From assembly GCA_964501135.1 (NCBI GenBank), contig CAZCRI010000004.1, positions 1 to 45,237 on the forward strand: a stretch of 45,237 nt of DNA, in the 5' to 3' direction. Each line of letters begins with the position of its first letter. The first letter of the stretch is position 1. A program made the translations under genes and the position numbers. Under the pieces are notes generated by a model. That model saw only the letters and a list, made by a program, of their open reading frames with translations, had not been told where the DNA came from and searched no databases. The stretch is from an uncultured Candidatus Saccharibacteria bacterium. Lineage in GTDB: Bacteria; Patescibacteriota; CPR2; UBA1875; CAIMLA01. This document shows, piece by piece, positions 3,954 to 38,819 of this stretch.

Positions 3954-4223
3954 CTACACCAGCTTGAGGGAGATTTCCATCTCGATCAGTTCGATTCTCT
4001 TCCGGGCCACTGCCACCGCTTTTGCAGCAACTACTACCCTAGCTATGTGACCCGCTGGAAGAACCTTCACTACCTCAGAACCAAATTCGTTGACTAGGTC
4101 CGTGAAGTTATCGAGGTAAAAGAACTCCTCGATATGAATCAACGTTTCGAGATACGATGCCTCCGCCCTAAGTTGGCCTATACTCATTTGTGAATACTCG
4201 GACGGTTCTGCGAATACTGCCAC
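3954..4223 (-). CDS. Hypothetical protein (89 aa orphan) between uvrA and uvrC
   Basis: GTG start preceded by GGGAGG; fills the gap; no family recognised. Confidence 0.6.
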   Translation of the reverse strand: MAVFAEPSEYSQMSIGQLRAEASYLETLIHIEEFFYLDNFTDLVNEFGSEVVKVLPAGHIARVVVAAKAVAVARKRIELIEMEISLKLV

Positions 4224-4292
4224 GACTGCCTCCCGTATTTATGGGTGACATGCTACGACTATTGCTCCTTTCCCGAGTATGGGTTCTATTGT

Positions 4293-7103
4293 CTATGTAA
4301 GGACCTTGGCGAGGAATTGACCAGTGAAAGAACGTGGGTTCTTTGCAACCTGTTCTGGGGTACCAACGGCGACAATCTCACCGCCAGCATTCCCACCCTC
4401 AGGGCCAAGATCGACAATCCAATCTGCACACTTGATGACTTCTAGGTTGTGCTCAATCACTAGGACAGTATTTCCAGTATCTACTAGTTGATTCAAAACT
4501 ACCATTAGTCTACTAACGTCATCAAAGTGTAATCCTGTAGTCGGTTCATCTAGAATATACAGTGTTTTGCCGGTAGCCCGTCTGGCAAGCTCAGAAGCAA
4601 GCTTCACGCGCTGCGCTTCACCTCCAGAGAGAGTGGTTGCCGGCTGCCCCAAACGAATATATCCAAGACCTACCTCTACAAGCGTCTCTAGCTTACGCTT
4701 GATTTGAGGGATATTCTGAAAGAAATCAAAAGCCTCAGCTACTGTCATGTCGAGAACGTCGGAAATATTCTTGCCTTTGTAGTGTATCTCTAGGGCTTCT
4801 TTGTTGTATCTCTTGCCGCCACACTCTTCGCAGGTTACATAAACGTCAGGTAGGAAGTGCATCTCTATCTTCAGGATTCCTTCGCCTCGGCAAGCTTCAC
4901 AGCGACCACCCTTTACGTTAAAACTAAATCGTCCCTGCTTATAACCACGAATACGAGCCTCGGGAGTCCCTGCAAAAAGGTCTCGAATATCAGTGAACAC
5001 ACCTGTGTATGTCGCTGGGTTGGAGCGTGGAGTGCGTCCAATCGGAGATTGATCAATATCGATTACCTTGTCGAGATGCTTGAGACCCATAATTTCCATG
5101 TGCTTTCCAGCTGGTTGCTGAGCATGATGGAAAACCTGAGAAAGCTTTCTTGCCAGGATATCATTTATTAAACTCGACTTGCCTGAACCAGAAACACCCG
5201 TTACTAAAACTAGCTTCCCAAGTGGTAAAGAAACAGTCACATTCTTCAGGTTGTTTTCGGCCCCACCAACCACGGTAATCTCCTTACCATTCCCCTTGCG
5301 TCGCTTCTGTGGCACCGCAATGGTTTTTGCGCCCGAAAGATACTGTCCGGTTATTGAGTTTTTGTCCTTCTTGATTTGTTCTGGTGTGCCTTCGGCAATA
5401 ATATTGCCGCCGTGCTCCCCGGCTCCAGGACCAACATCAATAATCCAATCTGCTTCGTTCATGGTATCTTCGTCATGTTCGACAACAATCACCGAATTTC
5501 CAAGCTCACGAAGCTTTTTTAGGGTTTCTATCAGACGATAATTATCTCTTTGATGTAGACCGATTGATGGTTCGTCGAGGATATAAATTACTCCCATGAG
5601 AGAAGACCCTATCTGGGTTGCCAAACGAATACGTTGAGCTTCACCACCAGAAAGAGTATTAGCTGAACGATCAAGAGTAAGGTAGCTAAGGCCAACATTG
5701 AGCAAAAACCCGAGTCTTTCCTCGATTTCCTTGCGAATCTGTTTTGCTACAACTTTATCCCGCTCGTTTAGATGAATCGACTTAAAGAACTCCAAGGTTT
5801 CATTGATTGGCATTGTAGTAACGTCAAAAATCGACTTATTATCGACGGTCACAGCCAAGACTTCCGGCTTAAGGCGTTTTCCGCCACACTTTGGACACAC
5901 CGTGAGTGCCATGTATTTCTCGATTTCTTTCCGGACATAATCAGAATCAGTCTCATGATAACGGCGTTCTAGATTTGCGATTACACCTTCGTAAGTCGCT
6001 TCATAGGTACGAGTTCCCATCCGAACGGTAAATGATTCGTCTCCTGTGCCATACATCACAATATCAATCGCCTTCTGCGAGAGGCTCTCTACCGGCTGAT
6101 TCACATCAAAACCATACTTCGCCCCTACGGCCTCCAAAAGCTTCGTATACCAGCTCATGCGTGCTGTAGTACGACTCCATGGACGGATAGCTCCCTCAGC
6201 AAGAGTAAACTTCTGATTTGGCATCACGAGCAACGGATCAATTTCTAGCTTGGTCCCAAGACCAGTACAGACTGGGCAAGCCCCGTGTGGACTATTGAAG
6301 GAAAAACTGCGCGGTGAAATCTCCGGCAAACTGATGTGGCAGTTCGGGCAAGCGAAATTCTGCGAAAAGACTTGTTCGTCACCTGTATCACTATTTAGGA
6401 AAACCATTACGCCCTCGCCAAGATTCAGGGCGTTTTCAACTGATTCGGTTAGGCGCTTTTGAATTTCTGGGTCAACGATAAGTCGATCCACGACTGCTTC
6501 TAGAGTATGTTTTTTGTTTTTATCTAAGGAGTGCTCTTCGTCAATATCATAGATCTTACCGTCTACACGAACTCTTGCGTACCCAGCCTTCTTTAAGCCT
6601 TCAAAAACATACTTATGGACGCCTTTTTTATCATTAATAATCGGCGCCAAGATCATAAAACGAGTGTCTTTGGGCATTTCTAGAATCTGCTCTACAATTT
6701 GCGGAATCGTCTGCTTGGCAATGGTCTGCCCACAAACTGGACAATGAGGTACGCCAACACGCGCAAAAAGTAAACGAAGATAGTCATAAACCTCAGTTAC
6801 AGTCCCTACGGTCGAGCGCGGATTGCGGGTGGTTGATTTTTGATCAATAGAAATAGCTGGCGACAGTCCCTCTATCTGATCGACATCTGGCTTCTCCATC
6901 AGACCCAAGAACTGCCTTGCATAGCTGCTCAGGCTTTCTACGTAGCGACGCTGCCCCTCGGCATAGATGGTATCAAAAGCGAGTGATGATTTTCCCGAAC
7001 CAGAAAGACCCGTAATAACGACTAGTTTATCTCTAGGTATCGTGACATCAATATTCTTTAAATTGTGCTCTCTGGCACCGCGAATTACGATATTATCGTG
7101 CAT
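4293..7103 (-). CDS. uvrA: Excinuclease ABC subunit A
   Basis: Two ABC ATPase cassettes ([26 protein letters not shown] twice, LDEP twice), CxxC zinc modules; start taken at ATG 7103. Confidence 0.98.
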
Positions 7104-7190: not shown

Positions 7191-9260
7191 TTAGAGACTT
7201 TTAATCCGTTTATTGACCTTATTCTGATCTTTTCTTTGCTGTATGGAGGCAATCTGGTCACGAAGCTCTGCGGCTCGCTCAAATTCGAGATTCTTTGCTG
7301 CCAGATCCATCTTGCGCTCGAGGTCCTTTACCAAGCGACCCAGATCTTCTGCGGGAATCTTGGTAATATCAAATTCCGGCTCCATTTTTTCTTCGTGTTT
7401 TGCATGGACAATATCGTTTATCGCCTTCTGGATGCTCTGCGGAGTAATGTGATGTTCTTCGTTGTAAGCAACCTGAATCTTTCGACGACGTTCAGTTTCT
7501 GCAATCGCTCTCTCCATCGAACCGGTAATCTTGTCGGCATACATAATCACCCGCCCATCTTGATGCCTAGCCGCTCGTCCGATGGTCTGAATCAGAGCCT
7601 GCTCACCGCGAAGGAAGCCTTCTTTGTCAGCATCCAAGATTGCCACCAGTGAAACCTCTGGCAGGTCGATCCCTTCACGAAGAAGGTTGATGCCTACGAT
7701 AACGTCATAAACTCCCAAACGAAGGTCGCGTAGTATCTCCGGTCTTTCTAAGGTATGAATATCGCTGTGCAAGTATTTCACCTTGATTCCCATCTCGGCG
7801 AGATACTGAGAAAGCTCCTCGGACATTCGTTTGGTCAGTGTTGTAATAATTACCCGTTGCTTCTTTTCGGTTGCTTTACGAATCTCGGCAATCAAATCGT
7901 CAATTTGCCCTTCTATTGGCCGTACTTCAATTGTGGGGTCGATCAGTCCTGTAGGCCGAATCACCTGTTCGGCAATCCCTTCGTATTCGATGCCCTTGCG
8001 TCGATTCTCGTAGAATTCGGCACTTGTAGAAACCTTCCCTGCGGTACTCGAACGCAGCTCATACTCGGCTGGGGTTGCTGAGACGTAAATCGCCTGCTTG
8101 ATGTGTTTCTCGAACTCAGGAAACTTCATCGGCCTATTATCTAGCGCGCTAGGCAAACGGAAACCAAACTCTACCAAGTTTTCTTTACGGGCGCGATCGC
8201 CATTATACATTCCTCTAATCTGAGGTACGGTCATGTGTGATTCGTCAATTAGGAGGAGAAAATCCTCCGGGAAATAATCGATGAGAGTGGCCGGTTCGCT
8301 TCCTTCCTCTCGGTTTGAAAGAAAGCGAGAGTAATTCTCAATCCCAGAGCAATACCCGAGTTCATTTAACATCTCCAGGTCATAATTTGTACGCTGGGCA
8401 ATTCTTTCTGCTTCTAGCAATTTCCCCTGAGATTCGAATTCCTTTACTCTCATTTCGAGTTCATTCTGAATCTTCTTTGAAGCCTCGTTAATCCTATCTT
8501 TTGTAGTCACGAAATGCTTTGCAGGATAGATCGTAATATGGTCAAAGGAGTTTAGTATTTCCCCCGTAAGAGAATTAATCAAACGAATTTTCTCAACCAT
8601 GTTGCCAAAAAATTCTATTCGGTAGGCAAACTCTTCATAAGAGGGTAAGATATCCAAAATATCGCCTCTCACGCGGAAGTTACCACGCTCCAAGCTCTTA
8701 TCATTGCGCTCATATTGAACATCACTAAGCAGACGAAGTAAACGATCCCGGCTTCGCTCTTCGCCAACCTTGATCTCAACCGCTAGATTCTGATACTCCT
8801 CTGGGTTTCCGAGACCATAGATACAGGAGACAGAGGCAATAATCAGCGTGTCTGTTCGTGATAATAGTGCACTAGTCGCAGCATTACGTAGCCTATCAAT
8901 TTCCTCATTGATATCAGCATCCTTTTCGATATAGGTATCGGTACGTGGTATATAGGCCTCAGGCTGATAATAATCATAATATGAAACAAAATAATGAACC
9001 GCATTTTCAGGGAAAAATTCCTTGAATTCAGCATAAAGTTGCGCCGCTAAAGTTTTATTATGAGAAATGATTAGGGTCGGTTTCTGTACGTGCTCAATAA
9101 TTTTCGCCATACTAAAAGTCTTACCGGAGCCCGTTACCCCGAGTAGCGTTTGATGTTTTATCCCCGCATCAAGACCCGCCGATAGCTTTGCTATCGCGGT
9201 AGGCTGATCTCCTTGCGGCGAATATTTTGATTTTAAAACAAATTTATTTTCTTCCATCAT
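7191..9260 (-). CDS. uvrB: Excinuclease ABC subunit B
   Basis: [23 protein letters not shown] beta-hairpin, [25 protein letters not shown]-terminal UVR domain. Confidence 0.98.
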
Positions 9261-34207: not shown

Positions 34208-34791
34208 TTACTGTCTCCCAAACTTTGGGCAAAATTCACAAAAATTTTGCTAACCTCTCCGAAGGTAAGGTAGCGTGCCACATTGTTGTCCCACCAATTT
34301 TTCTTGCTCCAATTTACGTCCTTTGCGGAATGGTTGATGATTGCAAAGTCCTTCCCCAATTCTTTTTGAAAAAGATCCGAGGCTCGCCTCTGATGGTATG
34401 GGGAGGTCACTAAAATTATGCTTTTATAGCCGTTGTCTTTGATGATCTTAGCGCTAAGAGCAGCGTTTTCTACGGTAGTTTTCGATTTTTCCTCGAGAAT
34501 AATATCTTCTGCAGGAACTCCGGCAGTAATTGCAATTCTTGCCATAGCCAGAGCATTCGAAACGTCTCCTTCTGCAGCTGCTCCAGAGAAGATAATTTTA
34601 GGCGCCCATCTCTGCTCATAAAGTTTGACGCCCTCTGTGATTCTAGAATCGGTATCCCCACCAGAAACTACCACAATAGCATCGGCTTTTTGGAGCGGAT
34701 TTTGTGGTGAAAGGTAGATAGCAAGGGCAAATGGAATAAAAACTACCACTAGTACCGCTATTAATACCGCTGCGATGAGCTTCTTTAACAT
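34204..34791 (-). CDS. YdcF/ElyC/SanA (DUF218) family protein
   Basis: TM anchor, DAIVVVSGG, IIFSG, EEKSKTTVENA, VTSPYHQRRA. Confidence 0.9.
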   Translation of the reverse strand: MLKKLIAAVLIAVLVVVFIPFALAIYLSPQNPLQKADAIVVVSGGDTDSRITEGVKLYEQRWAPKIIFSGAAAEGDVSNALAMARIAITAGVPAEDIILEEKSKTTVENAALSAKIIKDNGYKSIILVTSPYHQRRASDLFQKELGKDFAIINHSAKDVNWSKKNWWDNNVARYLTFGEVSKIFVNFAQSLGDSK

Positions 34792-35747
34792 TAGTCTGTA
34801 AACTCCTGAACAAAGATTTTCCCATGAACCCCACCATCAAAAACCGCAATTCCAACCTTGCCATAATCACCAGAGAGCATATTGGCCTTGTGTCCCGGAG
34901 AAGCCAGAAGTCCAGTCATTGCCTCGTCAGTATCGGCTGCAATTGCTAGATTTTCCCCAGCAAAAAATGAGCTAATACCAGCAGCCTTCATCCGATCAAA
35001 GGCGCTCTTCCCTTCTGGAGTATAGTGCGACAGATACCCTCGAGAGAACATGTCCTTTCCATGAAGCACCGCTACCTTTGCTAATTTCTCATCTGCCTTT
35101 AGTGGTTTTAGCCCGGCCTTTTCTCGCTCTGCATTGAGACGAGCGAACATTCGATCAGCCGAAACCGCGTCCGGAGTAGGGTTTACAATTTTATATCCGA
35201 GGGCGACCTTATCTCGACTGCCACTGGTCACCGTGGCAAACCTTGCCAGATTACTCGCCACCTCACCAAAGGTCGCTTCGAGAAACTTCCCTACCGTTTT
35301 CGAATTTCCCTGCAACTGCCTGCCCACTAGAGACTTGTGGATATTGGCGTCCACTTCTTTCCCTAGAGGGAGAATGACCAAGGTTGCCATCACCAGGGCT
35401 ATGATGCCGGCCGCTTTCACGACGCCCAGGGCGACCCCACACCACTTATTCCACCTGGAATCTATCACCTCTTCGGGAATATATGCTAGTGCGTAACTAC
35501 TTGCAATATATAAAATTAACTCAACAATGAACCAGATAACGAAAAAGGCTCCGGCTTTGACAAAAGTTTCCGGCAAGGAAATCAAATTTCCTAGGAAGCT
35601 CGCTAGCCCAGAGTAAAAAACTAGCGCTGATCCAAATGAAATCAAAAGAATTGCCAGGTCCGCGGCCTCGCGAGCTAACCCTCTACGGAAACCGAGGAGC
35701 CCGAAGACTACGAGAATCAAAAATATAATCAGGTCAATATAATTCAT
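34791..35747 (-). CDS. CvpA-family membrane domain fused to a CAP/SCP domain
   Basis: DLIIFLIL..FGLLGFRRGL CvpA start, about four TM helices; C-terminal NAEREKAGL.PL, HGKDM, SH, GENLA, SPGHKANML. Confidence 0.85.
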   Translation of the reverse strand: MNYIDLIIFLILVVFGLLGFRRGLAREAADLAILLISFGSALVFYSGLASFLGNLISLPETFVKAGAFFVIWFIVELILYIASSYALAYIPEEVIDSRWNKWCGVALGVVKAAGIIALVMATLVILPLGKEVDANIHKSLVGRQLQGNSKTVGKFLEATFGEVASNLARFATVTSGSRDKVALGYKIVNPTPDAVSADRMFARLNAEREKAGLKPLKADEKLAKVAVLHGKDMFSRGYLSHYTPEGKSAFDRMKAAGISSFFAGENLAIAADTDEAMTGLLASPGHKANMLSGDYGKVGIAVFDGGVHGKIFVQEFTD

Positions 35748-35775
35748 AGCCACCCTATTTTACATTTCCAGGCAC

Positions 35776-35806
35776 AAAAAAGCCACCTTGGAATCCCAAG
35801 GTGGCT
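35776..35806 (-). terminator. Intrinsic terminator closing the csoR operon
   Basis: AGCCACCTTGG-GATT-CCAAGGTGGCT-TTTTT on the - strand, 12 nt after the metallothionein-like stop. Confidence 0.85.
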
Positions 35807-35818
35807 CACCCTTAGCTG

Positions 35819-36037
35819 CTATTTACCGCAGCCACACTTACAGACACAGTCGTCGCCACAAGTACAAGGTTTACCCTCGCCACAGCCACAATCGCATTCG
35901 CAATCTGGACCACACTTGCATTCTGACTTCTCAGAGTCAGCGCAACCGCAAGAACAATCTGGACCACAAGTGCAAGGTTTGCCTTCGGCACAACCACACT
36001 CGCAAACACATTTGTCTCCGCATTTACAATCAGACAT
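35819..36037 (-). CDS. Metallothionein-like Cys-rich protein (72 aa, 23 Cys)
   Basis: ATG with AAGGAAAGGAG SD, terminator downstream; four CxCGxxCxC(xC)GC units; no His or aromatic residues. Confidence 0.8.
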   Translation of the reverse strand: MSDCKCGDKCVCECGCAEGKPCTCGPDCSCGCADSEKSECKCGPDCECDCGCGEGKPCTCGDDCVCKCGCGK

Positions 36038-36054
36038 ATGGTCTCCTTTCCTTA

Positions 36055-37368
36055 CTAATTAACAATAAAATCACCCGTATACATTCCCATCGAGCAAGAG
36101 AAATGAATCGCTCCGCTCTGTTTCGGCGTAAAATCAAAGGTGTTTACACCCCGCTTCAACAACTGACTAATGTCTAAATCCGGAGACCACAGATAGCTCG
36201 CACACGTAGAAATATCTTTCACGTCAACTACCCAACGAATCGGGACACCCTTCTGTACAATAAATTTATTCGGCGTATAACCATACTGGGTAACCTCCAT
36301 CCTGGCAATCTGGACACCATTCTCCATAGTTACGGCTGCGGCCTTTGGCTGCAGAAAGCCTATAGAAACAGTGCGAATTCCAAACATATTTAAGGCATAA
36401 ACCCCCTCTATCAGGGCGAACATAATTACTACAACCCCAATAATCTGAAAAACCTTCTTCATCGACTGACTTCGAATAAAGGAAACTAGCCCACCTACCG
36501 CCAGGAGACCCGGTGTGGTACCGAGCGCAAATGCCGCCATCAAGAGCCCTCCCTGCAGGAATCCTCCCGAAGCTACAGCGGTAACCTGTACCGCCTGAGT
36601 AAAACCACAGGGCAAAAAGAAGCTGAGTACACCCAGAGTGACCGCACCCCCATGAGTATATTTAGTGTTTAGATACCGTGTGACCTTAGACGCCCCATTG
36701 GGAAGAGTAACTCGAAAGCCAGCGATACGTGGTGATAGCCCGCTAAGGTCTATCCCGATAAGTAGCATCATAACCGCTGCCATCAAAATGAGCAGCCCAT
36801 TTACATACGGACTGATAGTGATAGAACCACCGAGGACTCCAAGCAAACCACCCAAAACAAAGAACCCACCTACCCGGCCGACATTAAAAAATATGTTTGG
36901 TATGAATGCCCCTATTCCCTGGATTGTAGAGTAATCCTCTCGATATTTGGCAGTAAAGGTCATTACCATCCCACCGACCAGAGCCATACAAGTAGAAACA
37001 CCCGCAACTAGTCCCAGGGTCAAGGATCCCCAAACGCCTATGGCAGTAATATTTATCCCTGGCAATGCCCCACTTACAAATATCAGGCTATACACAATCA
37101 ACACTAATATAGCCGTGAGGACTGCCCGAAGCCATAATCCGATGTCTTTTGAATACAATAATGGTCTTTGATTGGTAACCTGGTAGCCCAAATCCACAAT
37201 CTCTGCCTGTACCATGGCGCTATCAAATTCGCCCCAGACACTTAGTTCACTCTTTCGAGTACTTGCAGTCACCTTCTCAACGCCAGGAACCTTGGAAATA
37301 CGTTCTTCTAGCAGTACTTCACAGGCACGACAGTGCATCCCACCTATTTGCAAGGTAGTTTTGGTCAT
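36055..37368 (-). CDS. HMA + DsbD_2/TauE-like membrane domain + cupredoxin-like fusion protein
   Basis: N-terminal GMHCRAC metal-binding loop; TM domain with STCMALVGG and LPCGF; C-terminal GY.PN.F.V.KG.P.RW...C...FSCSMGMYTG. Confidence 0.88.
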   Translation of the reverse strand: MTKTTLQIGGMHCRACEVLLEERISKVPGVEKVTASTRKSELSVWGEFDSAMVQAEIVDLGYQVTNQRPLLYSKDIGLWLRAVLTAILVLIVYSLIFVSGALPGINITAIGVWGSLTLGLVAGVSTCMALVGGMVMTFTAKYREDYSTIQGIGAFIPNIFFNVGRVGGFFVLGGLLGVLGGSITISPYVNGLLILMAAVMMLLIGIDLSGLSPRIAGFRVTLPNGASKVTRYLNTKYTHGGAVTLGVLSFFLPCGFTQAVQVTAVASGGFLQGGLLMAAFALGTTPGLLAVGGLVSFIRSQSMKKVFQIIGVVVIMFALIEGVYALNMFGIRTVSIGFLQPKAAAVTMENGVQIARMEVTQYGYTPNKFIVQKGVPIRWVVDVKDISTCASYLWSPDLDISQLLKRGVNTFDFTPKQSGAIHFSCSMGMYTGDFIVN

Positions 37369-37635
37369 TTAGCCACGCCTCTTGAAGGCTTCCATTACTT
37401 CCTTGGCAGCTTCGTTTCCCTTGCCTTCCTTGATTTTCTGCACGACACAGCATTGCATATGGTCCCCCAGGACTGCCTCATCCAATTTCTTAAGAGCACT
37501 CTGTACTGCATATGACTGATTTAGTATGTCTATACAATATTCATCGTTCTCTATCATTGAAACCACCTTCTTCAGGTGACCCTCAATGATCTTTGCTCGG
37601 TGCAGTATATCTTTTTTGTTTTCTTTCTTAGTCAT
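37369..37635 (-). CDS. csoR: CsoR/RcnR-family metal-sensing repressor
   Basis: RAKIIEGHL, YCIDILNQ..AVQSAL, HMQCC (x-C-H-C ligand set); ATG 37635 with AAGGAAGG. Confidence 0.9.
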   Translation of the reverse strand: MTKKENKKDILHRAKIIEGHLKKVVSMIENDEYCIDILNQSYAVQSALKKLDEAVLGDHMQCCVVQKIKEGKGNEAAKEVMEAFKRRG

Positions 37636-37665
37636 ATTTCCTTCCTTGTTGAAAATCTTACTGGT

Positions 37666-37733
37666 CCCTATCCCCCGGAGGGGGTGTAATATAGACATTT
37701 TATTATCCCCTATCCATTACGTCAAGGGGATAA
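37666..37733 (-). promoter_or_regulatory. csoR promoter with C/G-tract operator-like sites
   Basis: TTGACG(37725-20)-17-TAAAAT(37702-697); TATCCCCC-GGA-GGGGGTGTA at 37669..37688; TTATCCCCT/AGGGGATAA inverted repeat at 37703..37733. Confidence 0.7.
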
Positions 37734-37742
37734 TTATAAAAC

Positions 37743-38129
37743 CTATTTTTTGCTTCGGTAGTCTTTTATCGCTGCCTGCAGTGCATTCGCCGCTAGGTTG
37801 GAACAGTGCATTTTGACTGGCGGTAAACCGCCTAGTGATGCTGCCACCTCGGCATTTGTCACCTTTTCGGCCTCATCAATAGTCATTCCCTTCACCATCT
37901 CGGTGATGCGACTAGATGTCGCCACCGCGGCACCGCAGCCAAAAGTCTGAAATTTCACGTCCTTAATGGTTTCCTTTCCGTCTACGAGCTCCACATCAAG
38001 GTAGATTTTCATAATGTCACCACAAGTTGGATTCCCAGTCTCACCCACTCCGTTTGCATCCTTTAGTATCCCCACATTACGCGGGTTCATGAAGTGATCC
38101 ATTACTTCTTTTGTATACAAATCTGCCAT
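37743..38129 (-). CDS. iscU: Fe-S cluster scaffold IscU/NifU-N
   Basis: HFMNPRNVG, NPTCGD, FGCGAAVA, LPPVKMHC. Confidence 0.95.
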   Translation of the reverse strand: MADLYTKEVMDHFMNPRNVGILKDANGVGETGNPTCGDIMKIYLDVELVDGKETIKDVKFQTFGCGAAVATSSRITEMVKGMTIDEAEKVTNAEVAASLGGLPPVKMHCSNLAANALQAAIKDYRSKK

Positions 38130-38458
38130 TATTTTTCTCCTTTTTCAATTTTTGTTTCTAGCTCATTCATAGTTTTTATAAACTCATTTTCTATATCAAT
38201 ACTCAACTCGTCCGCGATTACGAGAACTGTCCATAGTATGTCAGAAAGTTCATGGGCCAATTCTGAGTCTATATTTGTCCCTTTATACTTTCTGGTGCCT
38301 GCCTTTGCCATTACTAGCTTCATAAAGTCACCAACGTCTCCCGCCATTCCCTGGCTGCGTTCTACAAAAGTCCAAGGCTTTCCGCTACTTTCGATTTCTA
38401 GAGGTCTATATAAATTTTGGATTTCTATCGCCCGATCGCTTAGTTCCTTGAATTCCAC
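38129..38458 (-). CDS. MazG-like all-alpha NTP pyrophosphohydrolase
   Basis: GDVGDF...ELAHELSDILW..LVIAD.L.ID.E..F acidic helical motif. Confidence 0.75.
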   Translation of the reverse strand: MEFKELSDRAIEIQNLYRPLEIESSGKPWTFVERSQGMAGDVGDFMKLVMAKAGTRKYKGTNIDSELAHELSDILWTVLVIADELSIDIENEFIKTMNELETKIEKGEK

Positions 38459-38459
38459 G

Positions 38460-38819
38460 TCAGTCTCCTATTCTCTTTATACTACTTATTGTTACTAGAA
38501 TTGCCCCTTTGGCCGGGAAACCTGCATGGATTTCTTGGACCATGTCATAATATTTACCCACCGTTTGATATTCTGCCTTACCGGTAATCTTGTAGCCAAA
38601 ACATTCCTTCTCCCATTCCGGGTTCCAAACGACCATCGACACTTTGCCGTTCTTATTAATGTTTTCCCTGGTTTTTGTTAGGTAGTTATCTCCGATAAGC
38701 AATTTCTCATCGACAATCTTGACGTCAGCAACAACCGCCACATCCGGCTCGGTAAATGAGCTTGTCGATATCGCAACTGGATTATTCTCGATTAGCTTTT
38801 TGGCCTCTGTAGAAATCAT
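38460..38819 (-). CDS. Pyridoxamine 5'-phosphate oxidase-like FMN-binding split-barrel protein
   Basis: PVAIST...P.VAV, LLIGDNYL.KTRENI.KN.KVSM, GYKITG.AEY, PAKGAILV. Confidence 0.8.
   Translation of the reverse strand: MISTEAKKLIENNPVAISTSSFTEPDVAVVADVKIVDEKLLIGDNYLTKTRENINKNGKVSMVVWNPEWEKECFGYKITGKAEYQTVGKYYDMVQEIHAGFPAKGAILVTISSIKRIGD

Follow-up and report, generated by a model that had tools for sequence, protein, structure and literature searches.

The operon described here is a previously undescribed form of CsoR-controlled copper defense. It lies in the window, the 45,237-nucleotide stretch of DNA that was analyzed, in the 743-kb, five-contig, 99.4% complete genome (G000) of a candidate phyla radiation bacterium, a member of the Patescibacteria that probably stands close to the Peregrinibacteria/Gracilibacteria lineage. 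Bacterial copper defense is thought to be almost always based on a P1B ATPase. The reading preferred here, to which a probability of roughly 0.65 is given, is a CsoR-controlled Cu(I) defense operon in which a metallothionein gene replaces the P1B pump gene behind a gene for an HMA/DsbD_2/cupredoxin fusion protein. In all likelihood the cell defends itself by holding copper in bound form instead of spending ATP to pump it out. Sequestration is well supported, and export of Cu(I) through a membrane relay in the fusion protein is plausible.

In transcriptional order on the minus strand, the operon comprises a promoter with C/G-tract operators, csoR, the fusion gene, a 72-aa Cys-rich gene and a strong terminator. 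The original prediction, made from the DNA letters, had named a promoter, csoR, the fusion gene, the Cys-rich gene and a terminator within 35776-37733, and every one of these is present there. The cassette inferred from comparison, last in the following list of parts, coincides with that interval:

37703-37733, no strand: 9-bp inverted repeat TTATCCCCT-N13-AGGGGATAA, bracketing the -35 (read from the sequence)
37697-37725, minus strand: sigma-70-type operon promoter TTGACG-17-TAAAAT (10/12 matches, best of the region)
37672-37684, no strand: CsoR-box-like C-tract/G-tract palindrome CCCCC-GGA-GGGGG, just downstream of the -10
37369-37635, minus strand: csoR, predicted Cu(I)-type CsoR-family repressor, 88 aa (Pfam PF02583 and structure-relative alignment)
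36055-37368, minus strand: fusion protein, 437 aa (Pfam, invariant residues, AF2 model, Foldseek)
35819-36037, minus strand: metallothionein-like gene, 72 aa with 23 Cys (composition; homologues in G002, L227, L231 and L234)
35780-35807, minus strand: intrinsic operon terminator (12-bp stem, 7 G-C pairs, T-run)
35784-37743, no strand: putative replaced cassette, 1.96 kb (DNA collinearity with the sister genome G001 lost inside)

The repressor and its promoter

The first ATG of the csoR reading frame (37698) was rejected as the start codon because it falls within the -10 element. The start was therefore placed at the ATG at 37635, behind AAGGAAGG, giving a protein of 88 aa, similar to the 89-aa CsoR of L227. 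The product matches Trns_repr_metal (PF02583) at 3e-23 (82.5 bits; cut-off 22.8), and its best solved relatives are the CsoR proteins of Geobacillus (4m1p, 2e-15) and Mycobacterium tuberculosis (2hh7, 3e-15). In the 2hh7 and 4m1p alignments, C34, H59 and C63 fall on the M. tuberculosis ligands C36, H61 and C65, and the second-shell residues Y33 and E79 correspond to Y35 and E81. In the M. tuberculosis protein, it is through Tyr35 and Glu81 that bound Cu(I) makes the repressor leave its DNA. The C-H-C ligands together with Y33 and E79 support a Cu(I)-type CsoR on sequence grounds. The RcnR and InrS types were rejected, as the W position has no His, and so was the CstR type, as H59 is present. 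The top NCBIfam match is the RicR model, with a score below that model's cut-off. A genome-wide search found no second csoR.

Just downstream of the -10, the promoter carries a C5-N3-G5 site (37672-37684) that a genome-wide scan found nowhere else in the 743 kb. At sequence level it is the G/C-tract pseudo-palindrome expected of a CsoR operator, and it is probably the main one; L227 has a comparable ATCCCC-AGA-GGGGGGAT at the equivalent place. The inverted repeat around the -35, with arms at 37703-37711 (TTATCCCCT) and 37725-37733 (AGGGGATAA), is possibly a second operator. The stop codon of csoR directly abuts the ATG of the fusion gene (TAAATG), and a gap of 17 nt with a GGAAAGGAG ribosome-binding site separates the fusion gene from the 72-aa reading frame. 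The ligand set, the second-shell pair and the promoter box unique in the genome speak for a Cu(I)-type CsoR, and the view of a self-contained operon under such a repressor is upheld.

At low copper, a CsoR tetramer would occupy the C/G-tract operators overlapping its own promoter. Binding of Cu(I) at C34, H59 and C63 would release the repressor and presumably switch on all three genes. The Fe-S assembly genes iscS-nifU lie immediately upstream of the operon, and a homologue of CvpA ('colicin V production') is also near.

The cysteine-rich product and the nifU-cvpA slot

The 72-aa protein is composed of two tandem modules, CxCGxxCxC(xC)GCxEGKPCTCGxxCxC; Cys makes up 32% of its residues, and His, Phe, Tyr and Trp are absent. 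It thus has the composition of a metallothionein (small, ~30% Cys in CxC/CxxC arrays, no His or aromatic residues). It has no match in Pfam or NCBIfam, even at E 10, and falls outside the described metallothionein families (Pfam Metallothio*, BmtA/SmtA, MymT); judged by sequence, it belongs to a small, separate and undescribed family. A word-indexed search with the protein alone found no homologue, and relatives were detected only by phmmer over all representatives and by a module profile. Across 401 genomes of the phylum, the pattern CxCGxxCxCxCGC occurs only in G000, in G002 and in one simple repeat. In metagenome contigs, a degenerate DNA scan for it matched TG/GC simple repeats in overwhelming number and no locus with a fusion gene; a 291-aa protein of L175 with a metallothionein-like N-terminus surfaced in the metagenome pattern scan.

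Homologues in at least five lineages retain all Cys through synonymous change (11/11 Cys columns kept despite 8-14 synonymous changes). In L227, L231 and L234, which represent three other lineages, the gene directly adjoins csoR, and in the latter two it lies behind two canonical tandem CsoR boxes, ATACC..GGGGTAT. Four contexts thus place a member of the family beside csoR or behind CsoR boxes; for three further members of the wider family of small Cys proteins, the surrounding 3 kb contain no csoR. Given its composition, its conserved Cys and this linkage, the most suitable reading of the product is a metallothionein that sequesters Cu(I), in agreement with the original prediction. Bacterial metallothioneins are rare, the known ones being the SmtA/BmtA family and mycobacterial MymT, and this would be a new, eukaryotic-like family wired to CsoR in several lineages. 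The protein would buffer cytoplasmic Cu(I) in thiolate clusters, with a load of perhaps a dozen Cu(I) by analogy with other metallothioneins, and so may shield the Fe-S assembly proteins, whose genes directly precede the operon; the location right behind iscS-nifU fits Fe-S cluster assembly as the protected target. Sequestration alone has a finite capacity, which counts against a defense based on it.

Does the genome encode a pump elsewhere? No gene carrying the CPx and DKTGT motifs reaches the cut-off of TIGR01525 or of TIGR01511, the former model giving zero matches. The sole P-type ATPase (C4, ~70.1-72.0 kb) scores 476 bits with TIGR01522 and 242 bits with ATPase-IB_hvy, against a cut-off of 346 for the latter; it scores as type II and was rejected as a copper pump. 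A tblastn search with the CopA of the congener matched only this ATPase and the HMA domain of the fusion protein, the single HMA domain of the genome; no CopZ was found in the 99.4%-complete assembly. Profile searches, tblastn and the single HMA domain together extend to the whole genome the absence of copA and copZ that had been noted in the operon. The search for P1B ATPases proposed with the original prediction found none, and a CsoR-regulated copA elsewhere, which would have refuted it, is absent too, the only P-type ATPase being type II and csoR single-copy. A search for cuproenzymes found no multicopper oxidase and no NirK, and the only cupredoxin is that of the fusion protein; a sub-threshold multicopper-oxidase match was rejected, the protein being L,D-transpeptidase-like.

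Among Patescibacteria, a P1B ATPase is encoded directly downstream of the fusion in 54 of 63 informative loci. The order within the family, nifU-[csoR]-fusion-copA-cvpA, holds in G001, G003, G004, G005 and G008, and the gene behind the fusion in G001, the sister genome and congener, scores 610 bits with TIGR01511 against a cut-off of 397. The CopA proteins of relatives bear HMA domains, not cupredoxin metal-binding domains (MBDs). In G000 the metallothionein gene stands at the position of copA. G002 has a fusion gene without neighboring copA, its slot being filled by a one-module metallothionein homologue and a CopZ-like reading frame; there is no csoR anywhere in that genome, and an HMA-less P1B ATPase is encoded elsewhere. 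L227 has nifU-csoR-metallothionein-cvpA, without fusion and without copA. G007 was considered as an empty slot and dismissed as uninformative, since an unrelated 1470-aa gene breaks synteny.

By gene order, then, the fusion is the usual neighbor of CopA and not its substitute; the metallothionein gene alone occupies the place of copA. The original prediction had seen the fusion as an alternative to ATP-driven export and had proposed surveying its neighborhoods for copA versus small Cys-rich reading frames; with copA as the standard neighbor in the survey and in G001, that view does not hold. Its rationale, an energy-poor symbiont, is also weak, for a P1B ATPase is retained in 29 of 41 relatives with equally small genomes, among them 9 of the 11 genomes of the same family.

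Could the Cys-rich reading frame be something other than a metallothionein, such as the precursor of a RiPP, a peptide of sulfur or Fe-S metabolism tied to iscS-nifU, or a non-coding remnant? The lack of a Pfam or NCBIfam match and the neighborhood of Fe-S assembly genes and a CvpA homologue would allow it. This is nevertheless very improbable: a strong ribosome-binding site precedes the gene and a terminator follows it, its Cys are kept in at least five lineages, the link to csoR or CsoR boxes recurs in four contexts and no maturase gene lies nearby. Moreover, cvpA and the isc genes hold the same positions whether the slot contains copA or the metallothionein gene.

How the metallothionein gene came to lie there can be approached by comparison with G001. 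Blastn alignments give 77-85% identity in the flanks, as far as 35783 on one side and from 37744 onward on the other, with just two short patches between. Protein identity is 100% for NifU, 91% for CvpA-CAP, 93% for DUF218 and 81% for IscS, and 47% for the fusion. We infer that the cassette arrived by recombination. Rapid divergence of the fusion in place, after loss of its pump partner, was also considered; the share of identical codons at conserved residues is 0.36 in the fusion (72/198) and 0.47 in the pooled flanks (574/1225). The lower value for the fusion favors cassette replacement (z about 2.7, a two-proportion estimate), though with synonymous sites near saturation it does not settle the matter. 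The loss of copA is old, since the two metallothionein repeats of G000 have diverged to 7 identical codons out of 24. The metallothionein-bearing loci are polyphyletic, and the swap between pump and metallothionein must therefore have occurred more than once. Pump and metallothionein genes alternating in one slot among close relatives amount to a natural replacement experiment, which allows export to be set against sequestration in a near-identical genetic background.

The fusion protein and the route of copper

All three Pfam domains of the fusion score over their cut-offs (HMA 2.6e-9, DsbD_2 8.5e-28, Cupredoxin_1 1.5e-7). The HMA domain (PF00403, 37.8 bits; cut-off 24.8) is CopZ-like, carries the motif MHCRAC, of the MxCxxC-loop type and invariant across the family, and takes a ferredoxin-like beta-alpha-beta-beta-alpha-beta fold in the AF2 model (pLDDT 75, seven TM helices). 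C127 (STCM) and C254 (LPCG), also invariant, sit at helix breaks of the DsbD_2 core (PF13386), in core helices 1 and 4, and the six-helix core begins and finishes outside in the model. The model and a positive-inside count over 17 homologues place the HMA domain inside and the cupredoxin outside, so the topology and the membrane cysteines first proposed from the sequence still stand. The top Foldseek match of the C-terminal domain is CupA 4f2e (E 2.6e-8, TMt 0.87, rmsd 1.3 A, 37% identity), with CopA-MBD 4f2f also among the top matches (TMt 0.87-0.88 for the two). C389, C425, M427 and M429 align with C74, C111, M113 and M115 of CupA, its binuclear Cu(I) site (C...CxMxM), and the domain is predicted to be a CupA-like Cu(I) site facing outward.

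The fusion would handle membrane copper through three thiolate stations: the CxxC of the HMA domain, the Cys pair in mid-membrane and the outward Cys2/Met2 site. Most likely it would hand Cu(I) outward by ligand exchange, or else hold it at the outer face.

What does such a protein do in a cell without a pump? It might be only an accessory of CopA, a tethered CopZ inside and a Cu(I) acceptor outside, so that in G000 it would be a leftover and the metallothionein the sole defense. The position of copA directly behind the fusion in most loci fits this, as does L227, which has csoR and the metallothionein alone, and CupA of S. pneumoniae is a CopA chaperone (PMC7558416). Such a leftover is improbable, however: the reading frame in G000 is intact with every family-invariant residue kept, it remains behind the CsoR promoter with its start codon abutting csoR, the loss of copA is old, and G002 likewise keeps a fusion without adjoining copA. 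Because it is intact in a genome without any P1B pump, the fusion would have a role independent of CopA. Since CopA is its normal companion, its native role may still be accessory to the pump, with only partial function in G000.

A second alternative comes from the core. To our knowledge, the characterized members of the superfamily holding it move electrons, not metals, and in CcdA and DsbD the redox-active cysteines are found in core helix 1 and core helix 4. The fusion could be a CcdA-like thiol-disulfide electron conduit that carries no metal and exports nothing: C127 and C254 would pass reducing equivalents, the outward CupA-like cysteines would stay reduced and trap Cu(I)/Cu(II) outside, like CopL, and copper still entering would be bound by the metallothionein. 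Besides the Pfam family DsbD_2, some homologues match DsbD_TM (PF02683), the two invariant Cys lie at the corresponding helix breaks, and outward cysteines require a reductant in oxic surroundings. CupA is reported to reduce Cu(II) via its S1 cysteines (PMC7558416), and extracytoplasmic copper sequestration is a known mode of resistance (PMC11672702). Yet no recurrent thioredoxin-like partner gene was found among the clustered neighbors of 80 fusion loci, where the only recurrent neighbors besides csoR and copA are a two-component pair (10 loci). We know of no HMA domain that serves as electron donor to DsbD-type proteins, and metal hand-over would explain equally well why the fusion nearly always accompanies CopA and has copper-type ligand sets on both sides. 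Fold searches gave no solved relative of the membrane domain: the whole-protein model matched only cupredoxin and HMA structures, the best PDB match of a TM-only model (pLDDT 70) was not better than E 0.09 (Foldseek), and a profile search of PDB sequences found none. The CcdA likeness of the core thus derives from Pfam, as the TM-only model gave no solved relative. On balance, the electron conduit is rather unlikely, with perhaps one chance in four left to it.

Copper could also travel inward, from the outward site through the membrane Cys to the HMA domain and the metallothionein, for uptake, storage or scavenging. MerP, MerT and NmerA are known to pass Hg(II) into the cell from thiol to thiol; the HMA domain matches the MerP and MerTP models weakly, and a high-affinity cytoplasmic sink would be co-expressed. 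But uptake would hardly be switched on by derepression of CsoR at high copper, the search of G000 for cuproenzymes gave none, and the usual partner of the fusion is an exporter; inward transport has very little to recommend it.

Beyond the copper-binding operon preferred here, a broader proposal is offered tentatively: that the fusion is an ATP-independent Cu(I) conduit widespread in Patescibacteria and working by thiolate ligand exchange along its three Cys-pair stations, that together with a new family of CsoR-regulated metallothioneins it suffices to replace a P1B pump, and that the nifU-cvpA slot is a recombination site at which pump and sequestration cassettes have been repeatedly exchanged.

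Comparison with known systems

In B. subtilis and M. tuberculosis, CsoR controls copZA or ctpV operons. The sensor family, ligand set, G/C-tract operators and autoregulation (here predicted) are alike, whereas the cargo of the present operon includes neither an ATPase nor a free CopZ. An earlier, purely computational report likewise inferred that the HMA + DsbD_2 architecture is CsoR-regulated, but describes no cupredoxin domain, function or metallothionein link. The closest regulatory parallel is RicR, a CsoR paralogue that controls the Cu(I) metallothionein MymT in M. tuberculosis (PMC3944814). In both cases a CsoR-family Cu(I) sensor governs a small cytoplasmic Cys-rich copper-binding protein (here predicted). 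However, the 72-aa protein is no sequence kin of MymT, metallothionein and sensor here share one operon, and M. tuberculosis also has CtpV-type pumps, of which G000 has none.

For the fusion protein, the predicted six-helix core, with a conserved Cys in helix 1 and another in helix 4 and with soluble Cys-pair domains on either flank, recalls the CcdA/DsbD carriers. In the fusion, by contrast, these flanking domains are copper-binding folds (HMA and CupA-like) and not thioredoxin folds, and the genomic partner is a copper pump instead of cytochrome c or Dsb genes. With MerP-MerT-NmerA it would share the passage of a thiophilic metal between Cys pairs without ATP, with an HMA domain at one end, but the likely direction is the reverse, another metal and another membrane fold are involved, and a reductase sink is missing. 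CopL, a surface Cu(I)-binding lipoprotein of S. aureus and B. subtilis (PMC11672702), is comparable in that its Cu(I)-binding domain lies outside the cytoplasm, its gene adjoins that of a copper pump and its host lacks an outer membrane; its fold is unrelated, and it is a lipoprotein, whereas the domain of the fusion is part of a polytopic protein.

With CupA and the CopA-MBD of S. pneumoniae (4f2e, 4f2f), the fusion shares the cupredoxin fold and all four Cu(I) ligands. CupA is a single-pass protein with an N-terminal anchor that faces the cytoplasm and feeds a CopA with a cupredoxin MBD; here the domain forms the C-terminus of a seven-TM protein, is predicted to face outward and occurs in a genome without CopA. 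CupA has been described as restricted to a few streptococci (PMC7558416), and the fusion extends this range. It is a very common, uncharacterized membrane protein of the candidate phyla radiation that joins CopZ-like, CcdA-like and outward CupA-like parts, and it suggests a new route across the membrane for copper, or for electrons used in copper handling.

Organization and control of the copper operon

The operon anatomy given in the original prediction stands, with a promoter, csoR, a TAAATG-coupled fusion gene, a 17-nt gap, a Cys-rich gene and a terminator, all on the minus strand.

Sequence features of the copper operon (window coordinates)
37725-37697, minus strand: promoter, TTGACG-17-TAAAAT
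Both sides of the -35: 9-bp inverted repeat, TTATCCCCT/AGGGGATAA
37672-37684: CCCCC-GGA-GGGGG, after the promoter
36055-37368, minus strand: fusion gene
35819-36037, minus strand: 72-aa Cys-rich ORF
35807-35780, minus strand: terminator with a 12-bp stem, end of the unit

In a whole-genome pattern scan, 37672-37684 was the sole C5-N3-G5 occurrence in the 743-kb source genome (G000). A perfect hairpin on its contig C2 (15836-15855, AATCCCCCTTTCGGGGGATT) is also CsoR-box-like and is probably a terminator. In the csoR ORF as listed, the first ATG falls within the -10, and hence translation truly begins at the ATG at 37635, preceded by AAGGAAGG, which yields an 88-aa protein similar to the 89-aa CsoR of the metagenomic locus L227. 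The csoR stop is directly joined to the fusion ATG, and the gap before the 72-aa ORF holds a good ribosome-binding site.

CsoR matches PF02583 (3e-23). Among solved structures it is closest to the Cu(I) sensors of Geobacillus (4m1p) and M. tuberculosis (2hh7), and InrS, CstR-like and FrmR entries score lower. In these alignments C34, H59 and C63 correspond to C36, H61 and C65 of the mycobacterial protein, and Y33 and E79 to its second-shell Y35 and E81. As predicted, this is by its residues a Cu-type CsoR, bearing the Cu(I) fingerprint and not that for Ni/Co, persulfide or formaldehyde.

The 72-aa metallothionein-like protein (MT) comprises two tandem modules with 23 Cys, no His and no aromatic residues, and no Pfam or NCBIfam model matched it, even at E 10. 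A phmmer search of 1.84 billion representatives returned seven matches. A module profile picked up 32 short proteins with E<1e-3, and the form MEEKKCNCGPDCTCGCQEGKECTC... is common among them. Among the MTs of G000, its congener G002 and L227 the Cys columns are fully kept, with 8-14 synonymous vs 7-10 non-synonymous codon changes. csoR lies in the operon or adjacent in four of the eight MT contexts examined, a linkage far beyond chance because csoR occurs about once per genome. The order is csoR-MT in L227 and MT-csoR in loci L231 and L234, where each pair is preceded by two canonical ATACC-N-GGGGTAT boxes and both CsoRs have the YC...H...C pattern. The L231 MT gene (4200-4470) is built of tandem repeats of ~96 nt, and its reading frame apparently slips in copy two or three, perhaps because the assembly collapsed or perhaps because repeat number truly varies. 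For three members of the MEEKKCNC subgroup, no csoR lies closer than 3 kb. On metagenome contigs L232, L236 and L238, proteins of 31-64 aa (MEEKKCNCGPDCTCGCQEGKECTC...) are encoded beside ABC-transporter genes and beside unknown genes of 120-180 aa rather than beside csoR, and may belong to another regulon that uses this metal-binding module. The CxCGC-EGK-CTCG module also occurs inside larger proteins (P0127, of 266 aa, P0125, P0126 and P0123): three copies lie in a membrane protein of the DoxX family, and the module is also present in a secreted EF-hand protein and in long secreted Cys-rich proteins. A DNA pattern scan located a 291-aa ORF with a metallothionein-like N-terminus (MENKECKCGENCTCNEDCQGGDNCRCGENCKCGCGCKC...) on the minus strand of metagenome contig L175 (~7265-8138).

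The pump slot between nifU and cvpA

The P1B search bore out the predicted absence of copA elsewhere in G000, which is 99.4% complete in five contigs. Its single P-type ATPase scores as type II (Ca-type model, 476 bits) and falls below the P1B cut-offs (ATPase-IB_hvy, 242 bits vs 346; IB1_Cu, 178 vs 397). A TIGR01525 profile search of the genome gave no match, and tblastn with CopA of the sister genome G001 recovered the type II ATPase and the fusion HMA domain, nothing else. The only HMA and only Cupredoxin_1 domains of the genome both sit in the fusion, csoR is single-copy, and a genome domain search found no multicopper oxidase or NirK-type domain. Within the GTDB family, csoR occurs only in G000, G005, G006, G008 and G010, and all genomes but G000 and G007 have a P1B ATPase. 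The proposed motive, an energy-poor symbiont, is unsupported, as the pump is retained in most relatives that are equally reduced. G002 has an HMA-less 657-aa P1B gene away from the slot (C2:93754-95415); similar ~657-aa ATPases without the N-terminal HMA domain, off the fusion locus, occur in G005 (C8:18470-20131), G012, G019 and G040.

Five genomes of the same family (G001, G003, G004, G005, G008) share the order iscS-(PNPOx)-nifU-[csoR]-fusion-copA-cvpA/CAP-DUF218-mnmA, and the G001 slot gene passes the CopA model (TIGR01511, 610 bits). In G000 the copA position is taken by the 72-aa Cys-rich gene. The G002 slot holds a 34-aa one-module MT homologue (MSKCDCGSKCTCECGCASGAECTCGSECSCGCGC) and an 84-aa HMA protein; this genome lacks csoR altogether, so transcription of the two genes probably comes by read-through from nifU. 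The pair (L096 4640-5010, minus strand) is followed by a terminator, and the HMA protein has a CGGC motif. The L227 slot reads nifU-64aa-csoR-MT-cvpA, with neither fusion nor copA. In a tree of IscS, CvpA and NifU, G000 pairs with G001, to which it is 87% identical, and L227 pairs with G008 (83%), both with 100% support; the MT-bearing loci are therefore polyphyletic. The gene immediately downstream of the slot in all family members examined (window 34791-35753) encodes CvpA (colicin V production) joined to a CAP/SCP domain.

At the DNA level, G000 aligns collinearly with G001 at 77-85% as far as 35783 and from 37744 onward, and collinearity collapses between. Protein identity is 100% for NifU, 91% for CvpA, 93% for DUF218 and 81% for IscS, and only 47% for the fusion; between G001 and G003 the fusions are 64% identical and the flanks 59%. 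Codon identity at conserved residues of G000 and G001 is 0.36 in the fusion vs 0.47 in the flanks. The interval originally assigned to the operon, 35776-37733, thus probably bounds a replaced cassette; divergence of the fusion by acceleration in place is less likely. The best non-self match to the fusion is also 47% identical, so the donor is apparently unsampled. The PNPOx/MazG-like region (window 38129-38458, and 38460-38819) is a second variable spot within the isc operon: a MazG-like gene separates the PNPOx-like gene from nifU and is absent in G001, where PNPOx abuts nifU and is only 63% identical to that of G000 (neighbours 81-100%).

The membrane fusion and its partners

The HMA, DsbD_2 and Cupredoxin_1 domains of the 437-aa fusion all exceed Pfam cut-offs, and residues invariant among 17 homologues include MHCxxCE, S-T-C127-M, FFLP-C254-GFTQ, C389 and F-x-C425-x-M427-G-M429-Y. 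The AlphaFold model (pLDDT 75) has an HMA fold, seven TM helices, of which 2 and 5 are interrupted at C127 and C254, and a C-terminal beta domain. Fold and PDB sequence searches found no solved relative of the TM domain. Among PDB entries, the C-terminal domain is closest to 4f2e, S. pneumoniae CupA in complex with Cu(I) (E 2.6e-8, TMt 0.87, 37% identity), and to 4f2f, the metal-binding domain of CopA, and C389, C425, M427 and M429 align in sequence with CupA C74, C111, M113 and M115. Family-wide K+R counts are 2.5, 2.9, 5.6 and 2.2 in alternate loops vs 0.3, 0.5, 0.2 and 0.8 in the remaining ones, and the HMA domain is therefore predicted to lie inside and the CupA-like domain outside. Most Patescibacteria versions (P0013, P0043, P0104, P0114 and others, ~600 aa) have an additional tail on the outer side, formed by a Ser/Thr/Pro/Gln linker, in many cases a Cys/Gly-rich segment (GGSCGSGGGGCGCG), and another cupredoxin-like domain, which has GCM...ITCAMG.

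The family has more than 3000 matches in Patescibacteria, mostly annotated "sulfite exporter TauE/SafE family protein"; the sole mention of its architecture in the literature searched is COG2836, in a CsoR meta-regulon that was inferred for gut Firmicutes (PMC4938975). A CsoR homologue is present at 37 of 80 related fusion loci, mostly immediately upstream. Sixty-three of the 80 had enough downstream sequence for an ATPase count, and a CPx/DKTGT P1B ATPase lies directly downstream on the same strand in 54; in several of the other nine, such an ATPase is no more than 2 kb away. It follows that the fusion habitually accompanies CopA, which contradicts its original casting as an alternative to ATP-driven export.

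In G000 the fusion is intact and conserved without any P1B ATPase and must therefore have a CopA-independent function, for which we prefer a metal relay as a plausible role. A CcdA-like electron supply to an outward copper trap is less favored, as no thioredoxin-like partner recurs among the clustered fusion neighborhoods; a residual chaperone role likewise ranks below the relay.

Copper handling and known systems

The locus has a copper-type sensor and operator-like sites, the genome has no pump, an MT gene occupies the pump slot, and both faces of the fusion carry copper-type ligand sets. We propose that Cu(I) would derepress the operon, that the Cys-rich protein, encoded next to Fe-S assembly genes, would buffer cytoplasmic Cu(I), and that the fusion would pass or hold Cu(I) at the membrane through the HMA CxxC, C127/C254 and the outward Cys2/Met2 site.

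Copper defense under CsoR is already known, and two undescribed components are added here; G000 appears to be a clear natural swap of pump for sequestration. RicR-MymT of M. tuberculosis (PMC3944814) follows the same control logic; G000 differs from it in its unrelated metallothionein and in lacking any pump. In the fusion, traits of CopZ, CcdA and CupA come together in a previously undescribed arrangement. CupA has been described as restricted to a few streptococci (PMC7558416), and the pneumococcal protein and the predicted outward CupA-like domain of the fusion lie at opposite membrane faces.
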